Shown: positions 5,289-28,057 of the stretch, piece by piece
Layout: every line of letters starts with the position of its first letter
Position numbering within the stretch: the stretch's first letter is position 1
Assembly (NCBI GenBank): GCA_046861385.1
Contig: JBHHTW010000024.1
Location: 1-34,539, forward strand
DNA from: Fidelibacterota bacterium
GTDB taxonomy: Bacteria; Fidelibacterota; Marinisomatia; Marinisomatales; TCS55
Direction: 5' to 3'
Length of the DNA stretch: 34,539 nt
Program-made: the position numbers and the translations under genes
The notes under the pieces: generated by a model
What the model saw: the letters and a program-made list of their open reading frames with translations, nothing else
Told to the model about the DNA's origin: nothing
Databases searched by the model: none

Positions 5289-6119
5289 TTACGCATTATC
5301 TATTCGTTTCATGGCCAATAATAAACTGTCTTTATCCGTTTCAAAACCAATGAATCGCCTTCCTAAATTTTTCACAGCTACACCGACGCTGCCCTGTCGC
5401 ATAAATGGATCAACAACCCAACTAAGTTTGTAGCTACTTACGTCCATAATTTTTCTGAGAAGCAAATTGGGTATCTCATACCTATATTTTTTATCAGGTG
5501 AATGATAATATTCCATCCACAAATTAGACATATTTCTCACTTCCTTAAAATTTTCGGAGATTGACTCATTTTCACTTATTTCATTATTAAAAATAAATGC
5601 ATTTGTTTTGGTTGCAAACCAAATATCACCTAACTCATTTTCCCATGATTTTAGTTTTTCTCTTCCTTTTATCTTCTTGTTTCGCCATGTAATTCTAGTT
5701 TGTACTTTGAAATAGTCACTTAAAATCGAATGATACATTCCGGAAAAACGCCAACCGCACAACAAATACATAGAGCCTGTTTTCTTTAATACCCGATGAC
5801 TTTCTCTTAACCAGCGATTGCTCCACTGAAAATACTCCTGGATAGTCATTCGCTTACCCTGTGTTCCTATATCCCTCCACGGACTTTCCGGCGGCGCCGT
5901 CAGAATAAGGTCAATCGATTCATCAGGAAGCCTCTTTAGACCATCAAGGGCATCTCCGAGAAAAACGCCTTCTTCCAATATTTCAATTTCTGATGATAAT
6001 TCATGTGTTTTTCGAATTGCCGATAAATATCGGTTTAAATCATCTACCGTCAGCCCGGGAGATGTTTCCAACGGATTCGTAAATAGTGGGTTTAATGATG
6101 TTTTGTCTGTTCCAACCAT
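5289..6119 (-). CDS. Beta-class N4/N6 DNA methyltransferase homolog with degenerate catalytic motifs
   Basis: GDALDGLKRLPDESIDLILT, RVLKKTGS, DPF..G and LGRRFIGFE give the beta-class order, but motif IV is APPE and motif I is FMRQG. Confidence 0.85.
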   Translation of the reverse strand: MVGTDKTSLNPLFTNPLETSPGLTVDDLNRYLSAIRKTHELSSEIEILEEGVFLGDALDGLKRLPDESIDLILTAPPESPWRDIGTQGKRMTIQEYFQWSNRWLRESHRVLKKTGSMYLLCGWRFSGMYHSILSDYFKVQTRITWRNKKIKGREKLKSWENELGDIWFATKTNAFIFNNEISENESISENFKEVRNMSNLWMEYYHSPDKKYRYEIPNLLLRKIMDVSSYKLSWVVDPFMRQGSVGVAVKNLGRRFIGFETDKDSLLLAMKRIDNA

Positions 6120-6227: not shown

Positions 6228-7262
6228 TTATTGAATAATGAGTTCAAACAACCGCTCTTCATCTTCAGCCTTGAAGGATACATGCACAGGCAAGGCGAAT
6301 AACGGTAGGTCATTTAACGATTCCAGTTTGACTAAATCCTTTTCTGTGGTAATAATAGCTTCCGCTTCAGCAGACAAATACACCTCCTGAATTACTTCAA
6401 AATCTATATCAGAATAATCCGCATGATCATCATGACGAAAATGGTGGATATAATCCAATCCCGCTTCCTCTAAAATAACTTCAAAACTGTCTGGATCACC
6501 CACACCGGATACCGCTACCACCGAGCCGCTGATTTCTTTTAATGGTTTGATTGATCCGTCAAGACCGATTAAATGAGCTTCCGGTAAAAGTTCAGATTGA
6601 ATGGTAAAATCACAGTATTTGGAAATAATATTTATCAGCTTTTCACTCGGTGGCGTCAGATTTGTTTTCGTAAAAATCACAGTATTCGCCCGTCGTACAT
6701 TTTTTATTGGCTCTCTGAGGAAACCATATGGAAGGAGTTTTGGCTGACGGTTCGAGCTATTAATCAGGACAATATCTATGTCCCGGTAAACACGGCGATG
6801 CTGAAAAGCATCATCCATGAGAATAATATCCGGTTTGAATTCGCTGCAAATAAATAACCCGCCTCTGTAGCGATTTTCATCCACGACGACAGGTACGCCA
6901 CCAAGTTTTTCAGCCATCATAAAAGGTTCATCTCCGCTCTGCTGTAAATTTGACTGAATGGTTTTCCCATCACTGACAACAATGGTTCCGGAGGATTTAC
7001 GTTTATATCCCCTGCTTAATATCGCCACTTTCACCCCCTTGGTTTTTAAGGCCTTAGCAAGGTAGAGAACAAAGGGGGTTTTACCCGTACCTCCAACAGA
7101 AAGATTCCCCACACTGATCATTTTACATGGGAGTTTCCGTGAAACAAAGAATCCGATATTGTAATACAAATTTCGCCAGAAAACCAATAATCGATAGAAA
7201 AGCCCCAAGGGCCAAAGTAGTAAACGGTATTTTTTAATGGATTTCTGATCAAATTTCGGCAC
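6228..7262 (-). CDS. lpxK: Tetraacyldisaccharide 4'-kinase
   Basis: SVGNLSVGGTGKTP, LSRGYKR, GDEP, DDAFQH, LLPYGFLREP, TTEKD; GTG start overlapping upstream gene. Confidence 0.97.
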   Translation of the reverse strand: MPKFDQKSIKKYRLLLWPLGLFYRLLVFWRNLYYNIGFFVSRKLPCKMISVGNLSVGGTGKTPFVLYLAKALKTKGVKVAILSRGYKRKSSGTIVVSDGKTIQSNLQQSGDEPFMMAEKLGGVPVVVDENRYRGGLFICSEFKPDIILMDDAFQHRRVYRDIDIVLINSSNRQPKLLPYGFLREPIKNVRRANTVIFTKTNLTPPSEKLINIISKYCDFTIQSELLPEAHLIGLDGSIKPLKEISGSVVAVSGVGDPDSFEVILEEAGLDYIHHFRHDDHADYSDIDFEVIQEVYLSAEAEAIITTEKDLVKLESLNDLPLFALPVHVSFKAEDEERLFELIIQ

Positions 7263-7896
7263 GGCGTTTAGCCTCCTCTTCCAATAAATCCAATTGTTCT
7301 TTCAATTGGCGGGAACATTCTTCGAAATCATCCTCTTTGGAGAAAACCAGTGGTTCTCCCATAAGCAAAAATGTCTTACCAAAAGGCTTTGCAACATAGA
7401 ACGTATCCCAATTGGTGGAAGACCAATAGCGAGAAACAAAGCTTCCAGTTGGAAGAATGACTGCGCCGGTGCGAATGGCCGCTTTGACAGCTCCGGGCTT
7501 CGGCTCTTTTGCTGGTCCTTTTGGTCCATCCGGGGTTATGAAAATCAGTGATCCTTTTTCGTTTTCTAATACATCAACGATTTTTCTATATGCTTCCCGT
7601 CCTCCTTCAGTACTGGATCCCCGAATGGTTGTATATCCAATTTTTTCTGCAATCCGGGATATGATTTCAGCATCTCCATGGTGACCGGCCAGCCCGTAGG
7701 GCTGCTTATCCGCTATATATAAATATCCCGGTAAAAGGTTGCCGTGCCAAGTAGCAAAAATAATAGATTTCCCCTCATTACGTAATTGTTTGATCTTATT
7801 TTCTCCTTCAACATACCAGCGGTTAGTTCCGTATAGGAATTTCAATATCCATTTGCCGAATAAAACGCCCAGAAAGAATAGAAACTTTTTTTTCAT
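7249..7896 (-). CDS. DUF374 family acyltransferase (LpxJ-like lipid A late acyltransferase candidate)
   Basis: WHG, IRGSS, ITPDGPKGP and WD...KPFG motifs; lies between lpxB and lpxK. Confidence 0.85.
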   Translation of the reverse strand: MKKKFLFFLGVLFGKWILKFLYGTNRWYVEGENKIKQLRNEGKSIIFATWHGNLLPGYLYIADKQPYGLAGHHGDAEIISRIAEKIGYTTIRGSSTEGGREAYRKIVDVLENEKGSLIFITPDGPKGPAKEPKPGAVKAAIRTGAVILPTGSFVSRYWSSTNWDTFYVAKPFGKTFLLMGEPLVFSKEDDFEECSRQLKEQLDLLEEEAKRRAEI

Positions 7897-7930
7897 AAAA
7901 TATTATTTTTTTGTTTCCTTAACAAAAGTT

Positions 7931-9052
7931 TCATTGAAACATCCGGCTTATTATGGCTTCAGCGGCTCGTTCGTACACTCCCGGTAATCCAAGGGTGCGC
8001 CGTACTTCTTCATAACCCAGCAGCATTTCTTTTCGCTGTGGAGTTTGTTTCAGCAGGGGATTAATCGCATCTGCTAAATGCTTGGGAGTCATTTCTTGCT
8101 GGAGAAATTCAGGTACAATTTTCCTTTCAGCAATGAGGTTGGTCATAGCCGCGTAAGGAGCATGAGACAATTTTTTTGCCAGAAACCAACTCCCTACGGA
8201 CATTTTATAACACACAACCGCCGGGATATCCTGAACGGCAGATTGAAGAGTCGCAGTTCCGGATGAAGTAATTACAGCTGTTCCATATTCCAAACATAGA
8301 CGGGTGTCATCAGTTTCCACCTTCCAGCCCTTAGGCAGCTCACCCAATTTAATTTGAGGCGCTTTGCCGATGATGATTTGAAGATGGTTATCATTTATCA
8401 GAGAAACGGCTTTGATAAAAACAGGCAAATGACGATCAACCTCCTGTTGTCGGCTTCCCGGGAAAAGAACCAAAATAGATTTGTTGTTATCCATATTATG
8501 TTTTTTAAAAAAAGTAGATTTATCCATGGAAGGTTTTTGAAATTCTGCAAAAGGATGACCTACAAAGTCCGCATCGATACCCCGTTTTTGAAACCAGGCC
8601 TGTTCAAATGGAAAAATACATAACGCCTGATCCACACATTCCCGAATAGTATTCACACGATTTTCTTTCCATGCCCAAACCTGAGGTAAAATAAAATAGG
8701 TAATGGGGAGTCCTAAAAGATGAACTTTTTTTGCCAATCGAAGATTAAAGCCGGGATAATCTATTAAAATAAGTCGGTGTGGTTTAAACTCCAAAATTTC
8801 ATTGAGAGTTTTGCCCATGACTTTCATCATAAAAGGTATATGTTTGATCACTTCTGTAAATCCCATCATGGCCAGATTATTTACATGTTCCAGAATCTCC
8901 ATCCCGGCAGACTTCATTTTCTCACCTCCATGCCCAATAAATTCTGCAGAAGGAGATTTTTTCTTTATGGCGTTGATTAGCTTTGCGCCATGGAGGTCTC
9001 CGGACTCCTCGCCGGCGACCATGAAAAAACGAAGGTTCTGATCAATCAGCAT
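7931..9052 (-). CDS. lpxB: Lipid A disaccharide synthase
   Basis: AGEESGDLHGA, IDYPGFNL, PQVWAW, FPFE, FVGHP, PGSR, SGTATL. Confidence 0.98.
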   Translation of the reverse strand: MLIDQNLRFFMVAGEESGDLHGAKLINAIKKKSPSAEFIGHGGEKMKSAGMEILEHVNNLAMMGFTEVIKHIPFMMKVMGKTLNEILEFKPHRLILIDYPGFNLRLAKKVHLLGLPITYFILPQVWAWKENRVNTIRECVDQALCIFPFEQAWFQKRGIDADFVGHPFAEFQKPSMDKSTFFKKHNMDNNKSILVLFPGSRQQEVDRHLPVFIKAVSLINDNHLQIIIGKAPQIKLGELPKGWKVETDDTRLCLEYGTAVITSSGTATLQSAVQDIPAVVCYKMSVGSWFLAKKLSHAPYAAMTNLIAERKIVPEFLQQEMTPKHLADAINPLLKQTPQRKEMLLGYEEVRRTLGLPGVYERAAEAIISRMFQ

Positions 9053-9176
9053 GATCTAACATTTAGGAATGGATTGATTGTGTCAACCCGCGCATCAACA
9101 CAACTGATGCAATCAAAATAAAAACTGTAATGTATGCTTACAATACATTGCATATATCCATTCACATACATTGGTA

Positions 9177-9752
9177 TCAAACAAATTGCCACCGGATTAC
9201 AATAAATATAATGATGAGAACAATATTTTGCAATGTGCGCTTTTCTGTTTTCAATGTTTTCTTCCAGGTCATGGGAGAGCGATGATCTTCACTTTTCCAT
9301 GGAGAGAGCCTGGGAATCAGTTTTGGAACATTCTCTTTATACAGATCATAATCACTGCCGAATAATCCCGCCAGGGTTTCTTCTTCAAGGTCAACAATGA
9401 GGGCGTATTGGATAATGAGAAATGCCCAGACCACCGCCAGCATAAGCCAAATATTGGGAGCCCCTGCAACAAGGGTCACTCCAGTAAAAATCAAAAGATT
9501 CCCAATATAGAGGGGATTCCGGACACGGGCAAAAGGTCCGGAAGAACACAATGCCGGCGCACCAACTTTTGTGGTTCTGGTAATGCCTCCGGCATATCGT
9601 ACTGCCCAAAAGCGGATGGATTCTCCGAGAAAAAGACAACCGGCACCATAATATAAATAAGGGAAGGCAGGCCTGGAGAAATAAATAATTAATAAAGCCA
9701 AAGGAATGGGTGTAAAACTTCTGTTTTTGAAAAAGAAATTGCGTATATCCAT
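9177..9752 (-). CDS. ICMT/PEMT-family membrane methyltransferase (LmtA-like lipid A phosphate methyltransferase candidate)
   Basis: GPFARVRNPLYIG and EE..L...FG..Y..Y...VP..IP family motifs, several TM helices; sits in the lipid A cluster and is TAATG-coupled to the upstream gene. Confidence 0.8.
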   Translation of the reverse strand: MDIRNFFFKNRSFTPIPLALLIIYFSRPAFPYLYYGAGCLFLGESIRFWAVRYAGGITRTTKVGAPALCSSGPFARVRNPLYIGNLLIFTGVTLVAGAPNIWLMLAVVWAFLIIQYALIVDLEEETLAGLFGSDYDLYKENVPKLIPRLSPWKSEDHRSPMTWKKTLKTEKRTLQNIVLIIIFIVIRWQFV

Positions 9753-10741
9753 TAGTGTATATCTTCCAATATCAAATCGTGAATTTTTACGGCAACATCC
9801 AAAGCTTCTCGTCCCGCATGACCGTTTACAATTGGTGTTTCTTTACCTTGAATTGAAGCAATAAAATTGGTTAACTCCAATTCCAAAGCATCTATTTTAC
9901 TCACTTCCGGTTTCTCATAAACAATCTTTCGGGGAATCCCATAAGAATCCAATGGAGCGGTTTGAATCGCCGCCGGATTGTCTATGTTTTCATCAAGGAC
10001 GCGGTATATTTCTGTAAGCCCCAATAGAAAATCAATCGTCACATACATGTCTTTTTGAAAGATCTTAATTTTTCGGACTTTATCCCTGGCAATTCGGCTT
10101 GATGTTATGCTGGCAACGGTTCCATTTTCAAAACGAATTCTGGCATTTGCGATATCCACAGAATCTGATAAAATAGAGACACCGCTGGCTCGAATATTTT
10201 TCACGGAGGACTGCACCAATGACAGGATAATATCAATATCATGAATCATGAGATCCAAAATAACAGGAACATCGGTACCGCGGGCTGTGTAAGGAGCCAG
10301 CCGCTGAACTTCAATATATTTTGGTTGTAAATCAAAATTCTTTAGAGGAATTAATGCGGGGTTCAGCCGCTCTATGTGCCCCACTTGAATGATAACATTG
10401 TTTTCTTCAGCCAATTGTAAAAGATGGTCAGCTTCATCTACTGTCTTGGTAATGGGTTTTTCAATAAACACATGTTTTCCGGCTCTGATACATTCTTCCG
10501 CAACAGCGGCATGAGCGCGAGTGGGTGTTACAATAGAAATGCCGTCACAGTTTTCAACCAACTGACTTATGGAATCAAAAACAAATGTTCCATATTCTTT
10601 GGCTATGATATTACTACGATCCTTATCAATATCATATATGCCCATGAACCGACATTCGTTGTGATTAGTTAAATGTTTTACATGGTGGTTGCCAAGGTGA
10701 CCGACACCAATGATACCGATTTTTGGAAGATTGTTTTTCAT
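9752..10741 (-). CDS. Gfo/Idh/MocA oxidoreductase, GnnA-like UDP-GlcNAc 3-dehydrogenase
   Basis: GVGHLG, IVTPT, EKP, GHIERLNPA, RLAP...R..D...DLMIHD, SR motifs; upstream of lpxB. Confidence 0.85.
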   Translation of the reverse strand: MKNNLPKIGIIGVGHLGNHHVKHLTNHNECRFMGIYDIDKDRSNIIAKEYGTFVFDSISQLVENCDGISIVTPTRAHAAVAEECIRAGKHVFIEKPITKTVDEADHLLQLAEENNVIIQVGHIERLNPALIPLKNFDLQPKYIEVQRLAPYTARGTDVPVILDLMIHDIDIILSLVQSSVKNIRASGVSILSDSVDIANARIRFENGTVASITSSRIARDKVRKIKIFQKDMYVTIDFLLGLTEIYRVLDENIDNPAAIQTAPLDSYGIPRKIVYEKPEVSKIDALELELTNFIASIQGKETPIVNGHAGREALDVAVKIHDLILEDIH

Positions 10742-10963: not shown

Positions 10964-11569
10964 ATGCCTGCTAACGTCAAATCAGGGATTGGGTTTATTA
11001 TTCCCTTCGGAGCCGTTATCGGTTTTGTTCTTTCTGTGATAGCGGAAAATTATGTGTTGGGTATATTTTTGGCAATGGCCGGTATATTGGTCTGGCTTTT
11101 ATATTTGGCTGTTATGGATACTGATGCGCCGGATACCATGGGTAATTTCATTATTCTGTTTGGTGTTTTGCTTTCTCTTGCAGTATTTATGAACTTTGGC
11201 TGGGATCAAAATATGTGGGGAGGGTTTGAGTTTAAACCCGAGGGATCTGTGATGGCACTAATGGTTCTTTTCTTTTCCACCATAAGCGGTGTGTTGTATC
11301 GTCAACATGTGAGCAGTGTAAAAGGCGATCTAACAGACGCTGAACAAGAATTGGTGGATAAAGCGCTGCAGGGACAGGACAGCCCCAGAGTGATTGTGGT
11401 TAAACAGGAAGCTGAAAGTAAAGAAAAAGGTAAGGAAGAGAAGGAAGATGAGGACAATGAGGAATATGAGGAAGATTATGAATACCCTTACCCATATTAT
11501 TATGACGACGACGATGATGAAGATGATGAATATGAATACGAATATGAGGATGACGAAGAAGAAGACTGA
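10964..11569 (+). CDS. Hypothetical 4-TM membrane protein with extremely acidic Tyr-rich C-terminal tail
   Basis: 201-aa ORF with four hydrophobic segments, tail EEYEEDYEYPYPYYYDDDDDEDDEYEYEYEDDEEED, and a terminator immediately downstream. Confidence 0.8.
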   Translation: MPANVKSGIGFIIPFGAVIGFVLSVIAENYVLGIFLAMAGILVWLLYLAVMDTDAPDTMGNFIILFGVLLSLAVFMNFGWDQNMWGGFEFKPEGSVMALMVLFFSTISGVLYRQHVSSVKGDLTDAEQELVDKALQGQDSPRVIVVKQEAESKEKGKEEKEDEDNEEYEEDYEYPYPYYYDDDDDEDDEYEYEYEDDEEED

Positions 11570-13300: not shown

Positions 13301-13858
13301 TTAAAATGTATCGAGGGCAGGATCGCCGCCAAAATCATAGGTCAGATTATCAAATAAGCCGACTTGGAGGTTTTTGGCAAAATAAATAATCCTATCTTTC
13401 ACTTTTAGTTCAGCGTCACCCCACGCCATATAAACCGGCCGTGTGATGAATTTTTTAATATCAATTTTATAATATATTTTATCATGATATGGACGAACCT
13501 GACCTTTAAATTTCATATCCTGGACACCTAGTGCGCGTCCCCGCCCCTTGCCGCCGGCCCAAGAAAGAAAGAAACCGATAAGCTGCCAAAAACCATCTAA
13601 ACCCAGACAACCGGGCATAACAGGGTCATCTTTAAAATGACATTGAAAAAACCAGTCAGATGGATCGATATCCATTTCAGCTTTGATTTCTCCTTTATCA
13701 TATTTTCCACCTGTATCTGAAATATGCAAAATTCGGTCAAGCATCAGCATGGGAGGTAACGGAAGCTTCCCGTTTTTTTTTCCAAACATTTTGCCGGATC
13801 CGATATCAAGTAATTCTTGTTTTGTATATGAAGACTTTCTGTCCATTATATTTCCCAT
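13301..13858 (-). CDS. fabA: 3-hydroxyacyl-ACP dehydratase/isomerase FabA
   Basis: LPLPPMLMLDRI, WFFQCHFKDDPVMPGCLGLD (His/Asp dyad), GRALG, FKGQV; start may be the second ATG at 13846. Confidence 0.95.
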   Translation of the reverse strand: MGNIMDRKSSYTKQELLDIGSGKMFGKKNGKLPLPPMLMLDRILHISDTGGKYDKGEIKAEMDIDPSDWFFQCHFKDDPVMPGCLGLDGFWQLIGFFLSWAGGKGRGRALGVQDMKFKGQVRPYHDKIYYKIDIKKFITRPVYMAWGDAELKVKDRIIYFAKNLQVGLFDNLTYDFGGDPALDTF

Positions 13859-13869
13859 TTATGGTATGC

Positions 13870-13947
13870 AATTTACTGATTATTCAAGGTTCGCACATTG
13901 CAATTTTAAGCTTCTTGGTTTGCGGTAGAGCATGTCTTGTCTAAATT
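13870..13947. promoter_or_regulatory. Putative divergent promoters for fabA and the SDR reductase
   Basis: TAAATT on - strand at 13870-13875; TTGCGG-N16-TAAATT on + strand at 13920-13947. Confidence 0.4.
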
Positions 13948-13970
13948 CACGCCACAAAAATGGAGAAAAA

Positions 13971-14756
13971 ATGTCTGAATGGGTATTGATACTTGGATGT
14001 TCAGCCGGCCATGGAGGCGCAACTGCAAAACGCCTTGCAGAGGACGGTTATGGCATTATCGGGTATCATTTTGATCGTGGAGAAGTTCGTCGTCAAGGCG
14101 AAAAACTGAGAGATGAAATTGCTGAAATCAACGGCGGTAGAGTTCATTTCTTCAACAAAAACGCTGCTGATATTGATATTATGAATGAAGCTGTGGTGAT
14201 TATTAAAGAAATTACAGGTGGTGAACCGGTAAAACTTCTGCTTCATTCCATTGCCTTCGGTACGACAATGGATTTACTTGGTGAAACGCATGTTACAAGA
14301 AAACAAATGGACATGACCGTTCATGTAATGGGAACATCCCTGCTTTACTGGACACAACGATTGCACGATGCCGGATTGCTGGCTAAAGGATCTCGTGTTA
14401 TGGGATTTACAAGTGAAGGGAATTATGTTGCAATGGCGGGGTATGGTCCTGTAAGTGTGGCAAAAGTTGCCATGGAAGCCATTATTCGTCAAATTGGATG
14501 GGAATTAGGTCGTTTTGGTATTACAGCAAATGCCATACAGGCTGGCGTCACGCCAACCAGGGCATTAACAAAAATTTCCGATCGATGGGAAGATTGGATA
14601 AAACGTACGGAATACCGTAACCCTATGCGACGCACGACCACTCCTGAAGACGTAGCTGGAGCAGTTTCCATGTTATTACAATCGGAAGCGGATTTTATCA
14701 ATTGTTCCACTATTTATGTGGATGGCGGAGAGCATCGTTCGGGACGAATTTACTAA
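13971..14756 (+). CDS. SDR family enoyl-ACP reductase, FabL-like
   Basis: GCSAGHG nucleotide-binding motif, Y-x6-K (YGPVSVAK) enoyl-reductase spacing, VDGG; ATG at 13971 follows GGAG. Confidence 0.75.
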   Translation: MSEWVLILGCSAGHGGATAKRLAEDGYGIIGYHFDRGEVRRQGEKLRDEIAEINGGRVHFFNKNAADIDIMNEAVVIIKEITGGEPVKLLLHSIAFGTTMDLLGETHVTRKQMDMTVHVMGTSLLYWTQRLHDAGLLAKGSRVMGFTSEGNYVAMAGYGPVSVAKVAMEAIIRQIGWELGRFGITANAIQAGVTPTRALTKISDRWEDWIKRTEYRNPMRRTTTPEDVAGAVSMLLQSEADFINCSTIYVDGGEHRSGRIY

Positions 14757-23568: not shown

Positions 23569-26346
23569 TTATTTCAACACTACTAACTTTTTTGTTAACT
23601 GCTTCCCGGGTGTCTCCAACCGATAGAAATAAATTCCACTTGGTATACTGCCGGCATTCCAAATTACCTCATGTTCACCAGCTATAAGTTCACCATTCAC
23701 CAATACCACTACTTCCTGCCCCATCACATTATAAATTGTCAGTCGTACTTTTGACTGAACAGGTAGTTCATAGCGGATGGTGGTGGTTGGATTGAAGGGG
23801 TTGGGATAATTTTGGTGAAGAATAAATGAACTTGGTATCATATTATGATCATTTTCCGTCCCCAGTGAATGCACTACCTTTAAATAGATGTCATCTATGA
23901 TAAAGGGTGTCGTAGCTACAGGCGCTTCAGCTGAAATTCGGATAAACACCGGTGTATCAAAACCGGAAAGGCTCACCTCCTGTTCTACAAAATCACCGCT
24001 GACACCCGGACCGCCAACTGATACCAGTGAATCCACTAACGTCCAATCCAACACATGCAGAATCGATGAATCCAGAATGTCGTAAGAGGTTCCTTGAATG
24101 TCATTAGAAGCAGCTTCAACACGCGCCGTAATATTTTCAATGCTGCAAGCAAAGCGAAACGCCAAACCGGCTTCTTTAAAAGGAGTAATATCGAATGTCG
24201 TTCCTGATATAACTGTGTCCGGTTGAACGCCGGCAACAGGAGCGATAATAATCCAGCCAGCATCTACCCCGAAAGTTTCCAGATTATTCCCTACCCATCG
24301 GCCGTGATGTGGAGCGTACCAGCGTGAGGAATCCAGCCACTTATTCTGATCTAAATTATATGGGTAAACAGAATGATTTTGCCAAGCTTCCCAATCACCA
24401 ATAGCGAGTGAATCATTGATTACAAATGTATGTGTATCAGAGACAGTCGTATTCGCTGCATTTGAGCCATCTACAGCCATAACCCAATAATCAATTTGAT
24501 CCCCGAGAAAAAGATTAGACCAAGTCAACCTTGTTTTAAAACGTTCTGTTTCAGGTATCCGGTTCATTGTCTGGTTTTGAATACTACCATTATTAATCTG
24601 AAAATTGAGGCTTACATCCGGAGAAAAACGATCGCTGGCAGTAATGCTCACTATTTCGTTTCCGTTTGGATAAATTGTATTGGACAGTTCGGTAAAGTTT
24701 TCCAGAACCGGATGGGACTGATCAGGACCAACTTCAAATTTGAAATAGCCTGTTGGCGCTCCCGGAGGATAATAAACACCATTTCCATTTGCGTCCTTTG
24801 CATAAAAATAATACATAAATATACCCGAAGAACCGTTGCTGTAAACGTCGGCGCTATATGTATTGCTGCTGCCATCGTTGGTCATTGATGCAAATGAAGA
24901 TATATTGTTTACTCCAAAAAACATTTTTGGAGAGAAAGTATCAAGCTCAAATCCTATATTTGCGTCAATGTCGACTTCCAGGTGATAGGGTCCGACAGCA
25001 TCCTCAATAGTGGTCGGCACTATATGACCTCCAAATTCCAGGGGTGGACCTATGACATCAAAATCGGTATCATACGCCAGCTGAATCCAGGGAACCAGCT
25101 GTCTTAAGTAGGTTATGGAGCTTATATTGTCCGTTCCCTGGGCAATAACAATAGCGACGGCCACTTCCTGGGTATCACTCGGTGCCATGGAAAACGGTCC
25201 GGCTGTTATCAAAAATCGACGATCACCGCTCGGGTAGTAATTATAATCCACCCATCCGTCACCTGTCACAGGGTCACCATTAAAGACATATGTCGTTGGT
25301 TGACCTGTAACTGGGTCAATGTATTGTTCTCCTGTCTCTCCAATAAGTCCATTCATATAATTATATAATATTTCAGCTCCGTCAGGGTCAATATAGGTGT
25401 CATATCCCAAACTAAACATCGAAAAAGCATTCATTGGTATATTTTTATAATCAAAGATCGGATCTCCGGAAACCAAAGCTGTATCTCCCAGAGAAGGTTT
25501 TATTGGTGTCTGCAAATAAACATATCCTACCGTCGGAGGATTGCTCCCATACCTAATATCCCCAATAAAATCATTATAACTATAGCCCAGATTTAATTCA
25601 GGGTCACAACCGACAAAATCATTATTGGCATCCCCAATGTCCGGGTCGCTCCAAAAAGCGGCATACATAGAATCGAGTTGATTACCGCCTGTATTTACAA
25701 TTTCCCATTTAACAAACATCACATCTTTCAATGGTGAATCGGGGCCCTCACCAAATAACGAAACGCGAACTTCGACCCCCAAAGGCGGTGTGTTCCATAA
25801 TAAGAAGTGTGGAGTATGGCCACCATCGTTCATCACATACCAATGAAACAGGTCGCCTCTAACATCAGGGTGGTCTACATTTGGATCGTATACGCCATCC
25901 CCATCCACGTCCGCCCAGGGGGCGCCTTGATCCACAGGCCAGTTTTGCCAATCAGGATTAGAAGCATCGTCTCCTGCATGGATCGTGTAGATATGAACAT
26001 CCTCTGCATTGGGATTGGACCCATAGGGGCCAGGAGTATATTCCCTTGTATATTCAGACACCGCCGTTCGGATTTCCTCTACACCATTAATTCTTCCAGC
26101 GGCTAACCAAAGTCCTGATGCAAAAACCGCTGTTTTCCCGCTGCCGATTGGCCATTCAAGGCCGGCATCTCCGGTTGCATTATGATCAACCACGGCGCCG
26201 TTATTGCGGTGATAAGTGGAAATTTGATTTCCGTCCCAGATTTTGTATTCTAAAGATTGGATGGCATTCGGCCCCATCCGAACTCCCGGCAGATTACCGT
26301 ATCCAAATGAAACTATAAAAATTAATAATAATATCGATCTCTTCAT
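23569..26346 (-). CDS. Secreted protein with T9SS type A/FlgD-Ig-like C-terminal domain
   Basis: Signal peptide MKRSILLL (ATG 26346 after GAGG); C-terminal QNYPNPFNPTTTI...SGIYFYRL...KKLVVLK; DVDGDGVYD Ca-binding-type loop. Confidence 0.88.
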   Translation of the reverse strand: MKRSILLLIFIVSFGYGNLPGVRMGPNAIQSLEYKIWDGNQISTYHRNNGAVVDHNATGDAGLEWPIGSGKTAVFASGLWLAAGRINGVEEIRTAVSEYTREYTPGPYGSNPNAEDVHIYTIHAGDDASNPDWQNWPVDQGAPWADVDGDGVYDPNVDHPDVRGDLFHWYVMNDGGHTPHFLLWNTPPLGVEVRVSLFGEGPDSPLKDVMFVKWEIVNTGGNQLDSMYAAFWSDPDIGDANNDFVGCDPELNLGYSYNDFIGDIRYGSNPPTVGYVYLQTPIKPSLGDTALVSGDPIFDYKNIPMNAFSMFSLGYDTYIDPDGAEILYNYMNGLIGETGEQYIDPVTGQPTTYVFNGDPVTGDGWVDYNYYPSGDRRFLITAGPFSMAPSDTQEVAVAIVIAQGTDNISSITYLRQLVPWIQLAYDTDFDVIGPPLEFGGHIVPTTIEDAVGPYHLEVDIDANIGFELDTFSPKMFFGVNNISSFASMTNDGSSNTYSADVYSNGSSGIFMYYFYAKDANGNGVYYPPGAPTGYFKFEVGPDQSHPVLENFTELSNTIYPNGNEIVSITASDRFSPDVSLNFQINNGSIQNQTMNRIPETERFKTRLTWSNLFLGDQIDYWVMAVDGSNAANTTVSDTHTFVINDSLAIGDWEAWQNHSVYPYNLDQNKWLDSSRWYAPHHGRWVGNNLETFGVDAGWIIIAPVAGVQPDTVISGTTFDITPFKEAGLAFRFACSIENITARVEAASNDIQGTSYDILDSSILHVLDWTLVDSLVSVGGPGVSGDFVEQEVSLSGFDTPVFIRISAEAPVATTPFIIDDIYLKVVHSLGTENDHNMIPSSFILHQNYPNPFNPTTTIRYELPVQSKVRLTIYNVMGQEVVVLVNGELIAGEHEVIWNAGSIPSGIYFYRLETPGKQLTKKLVVLK

Positions 26347-26380
26347 TTTAACCTCGCGACCCATTGTTATTAAAATTCAT

Positions 26381-26839: not shown

Positions 26840-28057
26840 TTACAATTTCATCACCTTACCCATAAACATGATTGTACCAATATGGTTCTCCCGAATGGCA
26901 AGGATAAAGGGGCGGTCTGCAACGATTGACGGCGGTGCGGAAGTGACACCAGCCCCTACGCTGGTTACGGCAGCAGCCACAGCACCCTCTTCGTCCACAG
27001 TTAAGTATGTTTTATGTTTTACTTCGCTAATGTATATATTTCCGTTATCCAAGGGCATAATTCGTGAAAAATCTGCTGCAGATGGATTAAATGCGATTTC
27101 CATTCCCAATATTTTAAGAATATCATTCAGAGATTTTTCCCAAGCCAGGTCAAACCGTGGCAGGCCGATATGCGCCGTACCGGAGCGGAGATTATTGATA
27201 TAATGGTTCCATTTATCCAACGTTAAAGAATCGGCAATTGTGTTAATATCCTCAGGGATAATGACCGTAAATGAAAAGAGGGAGTCACCGAAAGGGATAT
27301 CTGCCATTGAAAAACCTTCCTGCCAATTGCTATAATACGCTACATTCATTTCCCGACCCATCATTGGAATAGTTGTTTCTGTTCCGTCATAATTATAGAA
27401 TGGTTTGTCTCGAGTGTTCTCTACATCGAATTGAGACCGCCAGCCGCCTTTGAAATAGAGCGCATTGATCAGGTACATGATTATTTCATCAGGAATTTTC
27501 TCCAAAATCGTTTCTATGACACCATTGGTGGCAGTATCCACCCAATCATTAATCACATTCACAGAATTCGGATCATTAAAATTCAGTTCCGCTACCTCTG
27601 CGTCAAAGTAGGTCTGGTTTGTTTGGATAAAATTATCGTAAACGGGCAGACCTTCACGATACCAGATGGAATTGGCAATGGATATCAAGACCTCCGGGTC
27701 CATAGAAGTAAGAAGCTCAATAGTTGTTTGGTAAGATGAATTAATATCTTCTTCTTCTAAACCAGCCAATGATAGTGTTCGACGCATGGCATCGTATGTT
27801 TCGTTTGCAGCCCCGTTCAGTGTCATACCGAGAGCCATGGAAATGGATAGGGGAGAAATCAGCATATTGCTATCGGGGTCTGCCTTATGAAGGGCTTTAA
27901 AAATATTCATTCCAAATACATTTCCGGAATGGACAACGGCCTTTTCGTTGGCGGTGGGCTCTCTTGGAGGCTGGCGGTTTCCGGAGCCCTCTTCTTCAAA
28001 TATTGAACAAGATAAAAAGAATATAGCCAAAACTGTTAATAATATTAACCTTTGCAT
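26840..28057 (-). CDS. Serpin (serine protease inhibitor), lipoprotein
   Basis: NMLISPLSI, INDWV..T.G.I, LINALYFKGGW, EEGAVAAAVT hinge, ADRPF, FMGKV; lipobox FLS-C; AGGAGG RBS. Confidence 0.96.
   Translation of the reverse strand: MQRLILLTVLAIFFLSCSIFEEEGSGNRQPPREPTANEKAVVHSGNVFGMNIFKALHKADPDSNMLISPLSISMALGMTLNGAANETYDAMRRTLSLAGLEEEDINSSYQTTIELLTSMDPEVLISIANSIWYREGLPVYDNFIQTNQTYFDAEVAELNFNDPNSVNVINDWVDTATNGVIETILEKIPDEIIMYLINALYFKGGWRSQFDVENTRDKPFYNYDGTETTIPMMGREMNVAYYSNWQEGFSMADIPFGDSLFSFTVIIPEDINTIADSLTLDKWNHYINNLRSGTAHIGLPRFDLAWEKSLNDILKILGMEIAFNPSAADFSRIMPLDNGNIYISEVKHKTYLTVDEEGAVAAAVTSVGAGVTSAPPSIVADRPFILAIRENHIGTIMFMGKVMKL

Follow-up and report, generated by a model that had tools for sequence, protein, structure and literature searches.

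Methylation of a lipid A phosphate is, to our knowledge, known from Leptospira only, where LmtA of Leptospira interrogans, reportedly the subject of a 2005 paper by Hinckley et al., is the lipid A Kdo2 1-phosphate O-methyltransferase (TIGR04571; Kdo, 3-deoxy-D-manno-octulosonate), and a search of the literature on LmtA with lipid A methyltransferases found Leptospira work only. GnnA, the UDP-N-acetylglucosamine (UDP-GlcNAc) 3-dehydrogenase, is represented among solved structures by 7bvj and 7bvk, which we take to be the enzyme of Acidithiobacillus ferrooxidans; their database label reads only "Oxidoreductase, NAD-binding", and the paper attached to them is said to be that of Manissorn et al. 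from 2020. DUF374 proteins are the LpxJ family, and LpxJ is placed in Helicobacter, Campylobacter, Wolinella and Rickettsia by the accessible part of one article (PMC6148475), while the accessible part of another gives chemical proof of 2,3-diamino-2,3-dideoxyglucose (GlcN3N) in the lipid A of Capnocytophaga canimorsus (Bacteroidota), in which gnnA and gnnB homologs are found (PMC3342949). Here we analyze a stretch of 34,539 nucleotides (contig JBHHTW010000024.1 of assembly GCA_046861385.1, positions 1 to 34,539; hereafter the window), in which a gnnA ortholog, a gene for an LmtA-related methyltransferase and a DUF374 gene lie together with lpxB and lpxK. To judge by the names of close homologs of this methyltransferase, the stretch comes from a member of the Marinimicrobia (SAR406, Neomarinimicrobiota, Fidelibacterota), a major deep-ocean lineage, and the entries listed by a literature search on Marinimicrobia and lipid A, judged by title and the opening of the abstract, include no study of the structure of this phylum's lipid A. 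The reading that we favor, with a probability of roughly 55%, is that these genes make up a late lipid A operon of SAR406 that would lead to a GlcN3N backbone, methylated lipid A and LpxJ-type acylation.

The operon and its methyltransferase

The assembly around the window comprises 2.43 Mb in 104 contigs and is 97.85% complete, the window being contig C25. Between positions 6228 and 10741 the minus strand carries five co-directional open reading frames (ORFs) arranged head to tail. The operon begins with the gnnA ortholog (9752..10741, 329 amino acids), encoding a predicted UDP-GlcNAc 3-dehydrogenase of the Gfo/Idh/MocA type, and the next gene (9177..9752, 191 amino acids) encodes a membrane methyltransferase with the fold of isoprenylcysteine carboxyl methyltransferases (ICMT), related to LmtA and referred to here as type A or the operon type. 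Beyond a spacer of 124 nt (9053..9176) come lpxB, coding for the lipid A disaccharide synthase (7931..9052, 373 amino acids; PF02684, 285.6 bits), the gene of a DUF374 or LpxJ-like late acyltransferase (7249..7896, 215 amino acids) and, with a GTG start, lpxK for the tetraacyldisaccharide 4'-kinase (6228..7262, 344 amino acids; PF02606, 280.1 bits). Both lpxB (TIGR00215, 269.2 against 190.25 bits) and lpxK (TIGR00682, 233.4 against 91.95 bits) exceed the NCBIfam equivalog cut-offs. The junction between gnnA and the methyltransferase gene reads CAC TAA TGG, the stop codon and the ATG having one base in common (9752); lpxB and the DUF374 gene are separated by 34 nt, and the latter overlaps lpxK by 14 nt. 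An earlier note on this DNA had described the same five genes with the same family assignments, as well as a TAATG coupling of the first two; the ORFs lie at the stated coordinates, Pfam and NCBIfam scans bear out the families, and the shared base can be read in the sequence itself.

The order gnnA-methyltransferase-lpxB-DUF374 was found in all of 30 loci (the window's own and 29 relatives), and because of this recurrence the arrangement is not attributable to chance. A one-base overlap of the form T[AG]ATG joins gnnA to the methyltransferase gene in 20 of these loci, the gap between the two being no larger than 9 nt in 28, and the spacer between the methyltransferase gene and lpxB ranges from -6 to 158 nt. 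Scanning the operon against Rfam gave no match at E <= 0.1 in the spacer of the window and nothing specific elsewhere, and a scan for sigma-70 promoters and terminators found nothing distinctive in the operon, the 124-nt spacer included. Judged by gene content and order, we have here a lipid A operon that is both conserved and modified, and its predicted products cover the late half of the Raetz pathway.

The only Pfam match of the 191-residue protein is PF04191 (PEMT, 40.3 bits). Its best NCBIfam family is TIGR04571 (LmtA), the match spanning positions 12-198 of a profile of 252, the full length of which the protein does not reach. In a Foldseek search with the AlphaFold (AF2) model (predicted local distance difference test, pLDDT, 90.9), the best solved matches were ICMT-fold proteins, among them Ma-ICMT (4a2n, TMq 0.56) and a eukaryotic ICMT (5v7p, 0.52), both with a probability of 1.00, and the C-terminal stretch RNPLY...EEE..L...FG..Y..Y of the window protein aligns to RHPMY...EEE..L...FG..Y..Y in the S-adenosylmethionine (SAM)-binding region of Ma-ICMT. 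An exhaustive search returned 8857 relatives at E <= 0.001; 108 full-length representatives (175-235 amino acids) drawn from the best 150 of them, plus the window protein, gave a family set of 109 sequences. The LmtA model matches every one of these (best E 1.5e-32) and the ICMT model 107 of them (best E 5.3e-16). At 31-51% identity to the window protein, the residues R47, R59, G72, R78, P80, Y82, N85 and E123 are invariant throughout the set, and the motifs R78-N79-P80-x-Y82 and E123-E124 are invariant or nearly so. These profile and structure comparisons give the protein an ICMT fold and make LmtA the curated family closest to it, without its being an LmtA equivalog; by the homologue search it belongs to a large, uncharacterised family of about 190 residues, for no member of which did our literature search find a study.

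Linkage of the methyltransferase family to LpxB

The occurrence of the methyltransferase was evaluated in 201 genomes sampled evenly across the phylum, 141 of them of high quality, a match of at least 120 bits being counted as strong. Strong matches are present in 83 genomes, and in 82 of these the gene lies directly downstream of gnnA on the same strand, a count that is based on coordinates for 81 genomes and on the fetched locus for another (G050), the remaining genome, G149, standing outside the count. Partial matches immediately downstream of gnnA were found in three further genomes of the sample.

Bacteroidota are grouped with Marinimicrobia in the Fibrobacterota-Chlorobiota-Bacteroidota (FCB) group, and the linkage extends over this range. 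A pattern scan derived from an eight-row alignment, with one genome per species, yielded 80 named loci labelled Marinimicrobia, Calditrichota, Bacteroidota (Chitinophagales and Cytophagia included), Ignavibacteriota, KSB1, Latescibacterota and Gemmatimonadota. The methyltransferase gene has gnnA upstream and lpxB downstream in 36 of them, lpxB only in 29, gnnA only in 12 and neither in three, so that, over the seven FCB-type lineages, 77 of the 80 loci have the family next to lpxB, gnnA or both. Where lpxB is the only one of the two neighbors, a gnnA ortholog was located elsewhere in the genome in all five cases checked (291-318 bits).

In addition, two representatives of the family are fusions in which the methyltransferase domain is C-terminal to an LpxB-like protein. 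When such a fusion protein was used as query, at least 10 clusters of 607-638 amino acids were retrieved, those with a name being labelled Armatimonadota (metagenome-assembled genomes, MAGs), together with three more distant proteins of 590 amino acids. A length-filtered homologue search with the window methyltransferase itself returned no longer proteins, the fusions having come from the representatives and from the fusion-protein queries. Gene order in several phyla and fusion in another phylum are, at the level of sequence, two separate lines that tie this family to LpxB, and the fusions suggest that the modification would coincide with the disaccharide step and take place on the cytoplasmic side. 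Searching the literature for a link between lpxB and isoprenylcysteine methyltransferases gave nothing. The fusion proteins are P0235, P0272-P0281, P0340, P0342 and P0344; unfused LpxB-like relatives of about 415 amino acids carry Xenobia, Firmicutes or Chloroflexi MAG labels.

Other Marinimicrobia carry a second, long type of about 245 amino acids, which matches the LmtA model over its full length (190-271 bits in the eight proteins scanned, with a cut-off of 325). This long type was found in 17 of the 201 genomes, all 17 of which lack the operon type; conversely, the long one is absent from the 83 genomes with the operon type, the window's own among them. In family f26 the operon type is present in 29 of 30 genomes (two of them with partial matches, beside gnnA), and the remaining genome, G057, has the long type. 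Its genes lie outside lipid A operons, with mutL, DUF502, a GGDEF protein, a rhomboid and others as neighbors; the loci are L147-L154, for instance L149:5325-6065 on the minus strand. The motif R-N-P-L-Y occurs in three of the eight long-type proteins. A profile-profile alignment relates the two types with a probability of 99.9% (E 2e-31, 181 columns), and both share, besides motifs of the SAM region, an N-terminal F-x-x-R-S-Y-x-P motif that lies outside the generic ICMT domain. A tree of 51 sequences contains three clades, namely the long type (support 92/95), the operon type of the FCB lineages (86/92) and the fusion domains (93/90). The complementary distribution of operon and long types fits functional equivalence of their predicted products. 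The long type also matches PF04191; the Pfam name of this family, phospholipid methyltransferase, had been considered as a clue to the substrate and was discarded as non-discriminating, since LmtA-like proteins get the same match.

GnnA, the backbone and the remaining genes

The dehydrogenase of the window contains the domains PF01408 (GFO_IDH_MocA, 106.7 bits) and PF22725 (35.9 bits). Its closest solved structure is 7bvj/7bvk, with 205 bits over residues 7-321 against 5-304, and the next chain reaches 67 bits. The ortholog is single-copy in 183 of the 201 genomes of the phylum and in 137 of the 141 high-quality ones. In 20 of 20 loci from deeper in the phylum, gnnA immediately precedes lpxB or the methyltransferase gene plus lpxB, with lpxK downstream in all 20 and the DUF374 gene between lpxB and lpxK in 13; on the basis of these loci gnnA-lpxB-lpxK is the core arrangement of the phylum, and the methyltransferase and DUF374 genes are optional inserts. 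By these comparisons the window oxidoreductase is a GnnA ortholog, the case for orthology being strong, and the gene sits inside a Raetz-pathway operon as had been proposed. Both this protein and GnnA of A. ferrooxidans, aligned over their full length, have the Gfo/Idh/MocA fold and are encoded among lipid A genes. The differences are that here gnnA heads an lpxB-lpxK operon throughout the phylum, that no gnnB is adjacent and that the activity is a predicted one. In two other FCB genomes (G205:C116:3519-6038 and G203:C8:2557309-2561092) a DegT gene and a weak Gfo/Idh/MocA paralog, which scores 53-58 bits to GnnA, are no more than about 2 kb apart; these resemble WbpB/WbpE-type pairs and are distinct from the true gnnA ortholog.

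The rest of the pathway is encoded elsewhere in the genome: lpxA, lpxC and lpxD are on contig C1 and waaA on C80. Two strong DegT aminotransferase genes are present, on C41 and C57. The first is LegC-like but below the cut-off (390 against 420 bits), and its neighbors, a PglD-like acetyltransferase and a glycosyltransferase, point to a nonulosonic-acid or polysaccharide cluster. In that cluster (L008:168-6861) the glycosyltransferase forms a fusion with an alcohol dehydrogenase, a CoA-transferase-like gene is present as well, and the whole probably serves a sugar of the nonulosonic-acid type. The second, DegT57 (C57:11060-12289, 409 amino acids), stands alone between hsp20 and tldD/pmbA genes. 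Against solved chains it scores 190 bits with QdtB and 175 with WbpE, and about 136 with PseC and 122-124 with PglE; these chains are labelled just "aminotransferase", and we assume the first two to be 3-aminotransferases and the others 4-aminotransferases. DegT57 is by exclusion the sole gnnB candidate, and naming it GnnB would be a guess. The earlier note correctly held gnnB, lpxA and waaA to be outside the window, and it expected gnnB elsewhere in the genome: a stand-alone candidate does exist on C57, but its orthology to GnnB is unproven. That note had also named the absence of a gnnB from the genome as grounds for abandoning the proposal; since a DegT candidate is present, such grounds do not arise. 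The description as one compact locus holds for the late half of the pathway, which is in one operon, and fails for the early steps, waaA, the LpxL-family acyltransferase and any gnnB.

A single LpxA exceeds the family cut-off in the genome, and among solved chains the Leptospira LpxA (3hsq, 183 bits) is outranked by six further LpxA chains of distinct sequence. A likeness to Leptospira is thus not to be claimed for LpxA, and the description of the lipid A as Leptospira-like is not justified. An LpxL-family gene near lpxA on C1 encodes a second late acyltransferase, and an LpxH-like gene scores 84 bits, under its cut-off. The DUF374 protein contains the LpxJ family domain (PF04028, 69.5 bits with a cut-off of 26.8). 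According to the accessible part of the source, the essential residues of Rickettsia typhi LpxJ are W60, H61, D86, D132, W172 and D173 (PMC6148475). A pattern search, as distinct from an alignment to a reference LpxJ, located W50-H51, D75, D123 and W163-D164 in the window protein, with spacings of 24, 48 and 40 as compared with 25, 46 and 40 in the Rickettsia enzyme as given there. The domain match upholds its assignment to the LpxJ family; unlike with LpxJ, the acceptor may here bear amide-linked primary chains.

Like the window genome, C. canimorsus belongs to the FCB group. Both have a gnnA homolog and LpxK, and the accessible part of the Capnocytophaga article, which records GlcN3N, describes two lpxA genes, a hybrid GlcN3N-GlcN backbone and 1-phosphoethanolamine, and no 4'-phosphate in spite of LpxK (PMC3342949), whereas the window genome has one lpxA above the cut-off. 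No methyltransferase is described for Capnocytophaga in that part of the article, unlike in the window operon. Because C. canimorsus has LpxK and lacks the 4'-phosphate, and because the window genome holds five PAP2 matches (four above the family cut-off), retention of this phosphate is not to be read from lpxK, and the claim of a 4'-phosphorylated lipid A made for this locus was not sustained.

Among the other genes of the window, the one at 5289-6119 on the minus strand, directly downstream of lpxK, encodes an N6/N4 DNA methyltransferase (PF01555, 102.7 bits), for which no restriction partner was noted among the window ORFs scanned. Divergent from the operon, 10964-11569 on the plus strand encodes a predicted membrane protein of 201 amino acids with no Pfam or NCBIfam family and with an extremely acidic, tyrosine-rich C-terminal tail (runs of D, E and Y). 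A FabA-type dehydratase/isomerase gene (13301-13858, minus strand) lies back to back with an enoyl-ACP-reductase-like gene of the short-chain dehydrogenase/reductase type (13932-14756, plus strand), which suggests anaerobic unsaturated fatty acid synthesis near the lipid A operon. Further away there is a full-length bacterial serpin (26840-28057, minus strand; PF00079, 338 bits) and, near it, a gene for a 931-residue protein for which Pfam gives a type IX secretion sorting tail as the sole match (23569-26364).

Proposed pathway, alternatives and meaning

In the pathway that we propose, GnnA would oxidise UDP-GlcNAc at C3 and a DegT-type aminotransferase encoded elsewhere would then yield the 3-amino derivative UDP-GlcNAc3N; the single LpxA, LpxC and LpxD would build amide-linked precursors, so that at least part of the backbone would be GlcN3N. 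A GlcN3N backbone in this lineage is likely on the genomic data, the argument for it being good, though with a GnnB that is a candidate only. The 191-residue enzyme would transfer a methyl group from cytoplasmic SAM to an intermediate of lipid A that LpxB has made. We would place this step on the inner membrane's inner face, since SAM is found in the cytoplasm and since, in the fusions, the domain follows a glycosyltransferase that is cytoplasmic. The methyl group would most probably go to the 1-phosphate, as with Leptospira LmtA, either on the LpxB product or on a later intermediate prior to export. That this enzyme acts on lipid A or its precursors seems likely from its gene context; methylation of a lipid A phosphate, with the 1-phosphate as the likeliest one, has about an even chance by analogy with LmtA. 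The DUF374 protein would add a secondary acyl chain in the manner of LpxJ, beside the LpxL-family enzyme encoded on C1, and this role is fairly probable given its domain and motifs.

A number of observations weigh against this reading. With respect to the methyltransferase, the case for lipid A methylation by the family of about 190 residues consists entirely of comparative genomics and distant homology and may be called plausible. The window protein is, like L. interrogans LmtA, an ICMT-fold integral membrane protein and has LmtA as its best-matching curated family, but it reaches 59 bits where the cut-off is 325, it has 191 residues for a profile of 252 positions, and it is without the C-terminal extension, about 50 residues of the long type being missing from it; it also differs in being encoded in a lipid A operon, and elsewhere fused to an LpxB-like protein. 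The designation as an ICMT/LmtA-like methyltransferase can be kept as far as the fold, the nearest curated family and the tie to lpxB are concerned, and has to be qualified in view of this score and of the position outside the LmtA-like clade. In the 51-sequence tree, which contains no characterised LmtA, ICMT or phosphatidylethanolamine methyltransferase sequence, the backbone that sets the operon type apart from the long type is weak (80/60). The mutual exclusion of the two types is only weakly independent and of little statistical weight, because their distribution follows families and taxonomy. Around half of the sampled genomes of the phylum have gnnA and neither type of methyltransferase, and the modification is therefore not tied to GlcN3N. 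As for the backbone, the LpxA of the window genome, compared with solved LpxA chains, showed no sign of GlcNAc3N selectivity. DegT57 falls below every NCBIfam equivalog cut-off, and its top solved relatives are 3-amino-5-hydroxybenzoate (AHBA) synthase and inosose aminotransferases. Its orthologs (at least 56% identity) are confined to the order of the window genome, with matches of 44-47% in one further family; streamlined relatives of about 1 Mb keep gnnA and carry a different single DegT, 31% identical to DegT57, and five gnnA-bearing genomes of Ignavibacteriota and Bacteroidota offer matches of just 36-40%. No DegT gene was found near the gnnA/methyltransferase operon in 105 loci, the distances covered being about 7 kb from gnnA in 20 loci of the phylum, 5 kb from the methyltransferase gene in 80 loci and about 6 kb from gnnA in five unlinked FCB loci.

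Linkage and fusion indicate LpxB and its product, and no particular atom, and the SAM-dependent methyltransferase may be a partner of the lipid A machinery and still modify another group instead of the 1-phosphate, candidates being the 4'-phosphate, the carboxylate of Kdo or of a uronic acid, and a hydroxyl or amine of GlcN3N. ICMT chemistry is carboxyl methylation, and the response of nearly the whole family to the ICMT equivalog model, as well as its forming a clade apart from the long type, would accord with such a target. We nevertheless regard this as unlikely, given that just one characterised relative has lipid A as its substrate and that it methylates the 1-phosphate and represents the closest curated family from end to end, and that the 12 loci with gnnA and without an adjoining lpxB or lpxK indicate no link to Kdo genes. 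If the substrate had nothing to do with lipid A and were, for example, the head group of a phospholipid or a protein bearing a prenyl or lipid group, the adjacency to lpxB would be left to shared regulation of envelope genes. The Pfam name and the many gnnA-bearing genomes of the phylum without a methyltransferase could be cited in favor of this, but the LmtA-like long type bears the same name, and co-regulation alone hardly explains an order kept across seven lineage labels together with independent fusions to LpxB-like proteins, which makes this very unlikely. Still less credible, and in our opinion extremely unlikely, is a catalytically dead ICMT-fold protein that serves to anchor or scaffold LpxB, a peripheral enzyme, at the membrane: the C-terminal position of the domain in the fusions would suit an anchor, and the motif is R-N-P-x-Y here and R-H-P-x-Y in ICMT enzymes (RHPMY in Ma-ICMT), but the eight residues that are invariant among 109 such divergent sequences suggest an active site, and R-N-P-L-Y recurs in the LmtA-like long type.

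The GnnA-like dehydrogenase could, on the other hand, supply a 3-amino sugar to a surface polysaccharide or to the core, lipid A being then an ordinary glucosamine disaccharide. The lack of a gnnB linked to gnnA in any locus examined would agree with this, as would an LpxA without special likeness to the Leptospira enzyme and the occurrence of Gfo/Idh/MocA and DegT pairs of the WbpB/WbpE kind in other FCB genomes. Polysaccharide genes, however, are usually variable, whereas gnnA is single-copy and near-universal in the phylum and heads the lpxB-lpxK operon there in every case; 7bvj is far closer to its product than any other solved Gfo/Idh/MocA enzyme, and the weak WbpB-like paralogs score 45-58 bits only. 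We consider a role in polysaccharide or core synthesis quite unlikely, and a GnnA that feeds the lipid A backbone remains the preferred reading.

It is tentatively proposed, at slightly less than even odds, that the proteins of about 190 residues form a hitherto undescribed family of lipid A methyltransferases coupled to LpxB, spread over seven lineages, fused to the disaccharide synthase in Armatimonadota and interchangeable with the LmtA-like type in Marinimicrobia. If this is true, methylated, charge-reduced lipid A with amide-linked chains on GlcN3N would not be a curiosity of Leptospira, but a common trait of some of the uncultured bacteria that are most abundant in the deep ocean and in sediments, and an ICMT-fold gene adjoining or fused to lpxB would be a simple genomic marker from which to predict, in many uncultured phyla, a modification that lowers the charge of lipid A. 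In that case SAR406 would have an amide-linked, methylated anchor, with a bearing on envelope permeability, on resistance to phages and antimicrobial peptides, on the sensing of marine lipopolysaccharide (LPS) by animal TLR4/MD-2 and, possibly, on the persistence of LPS-derived material in seawater.

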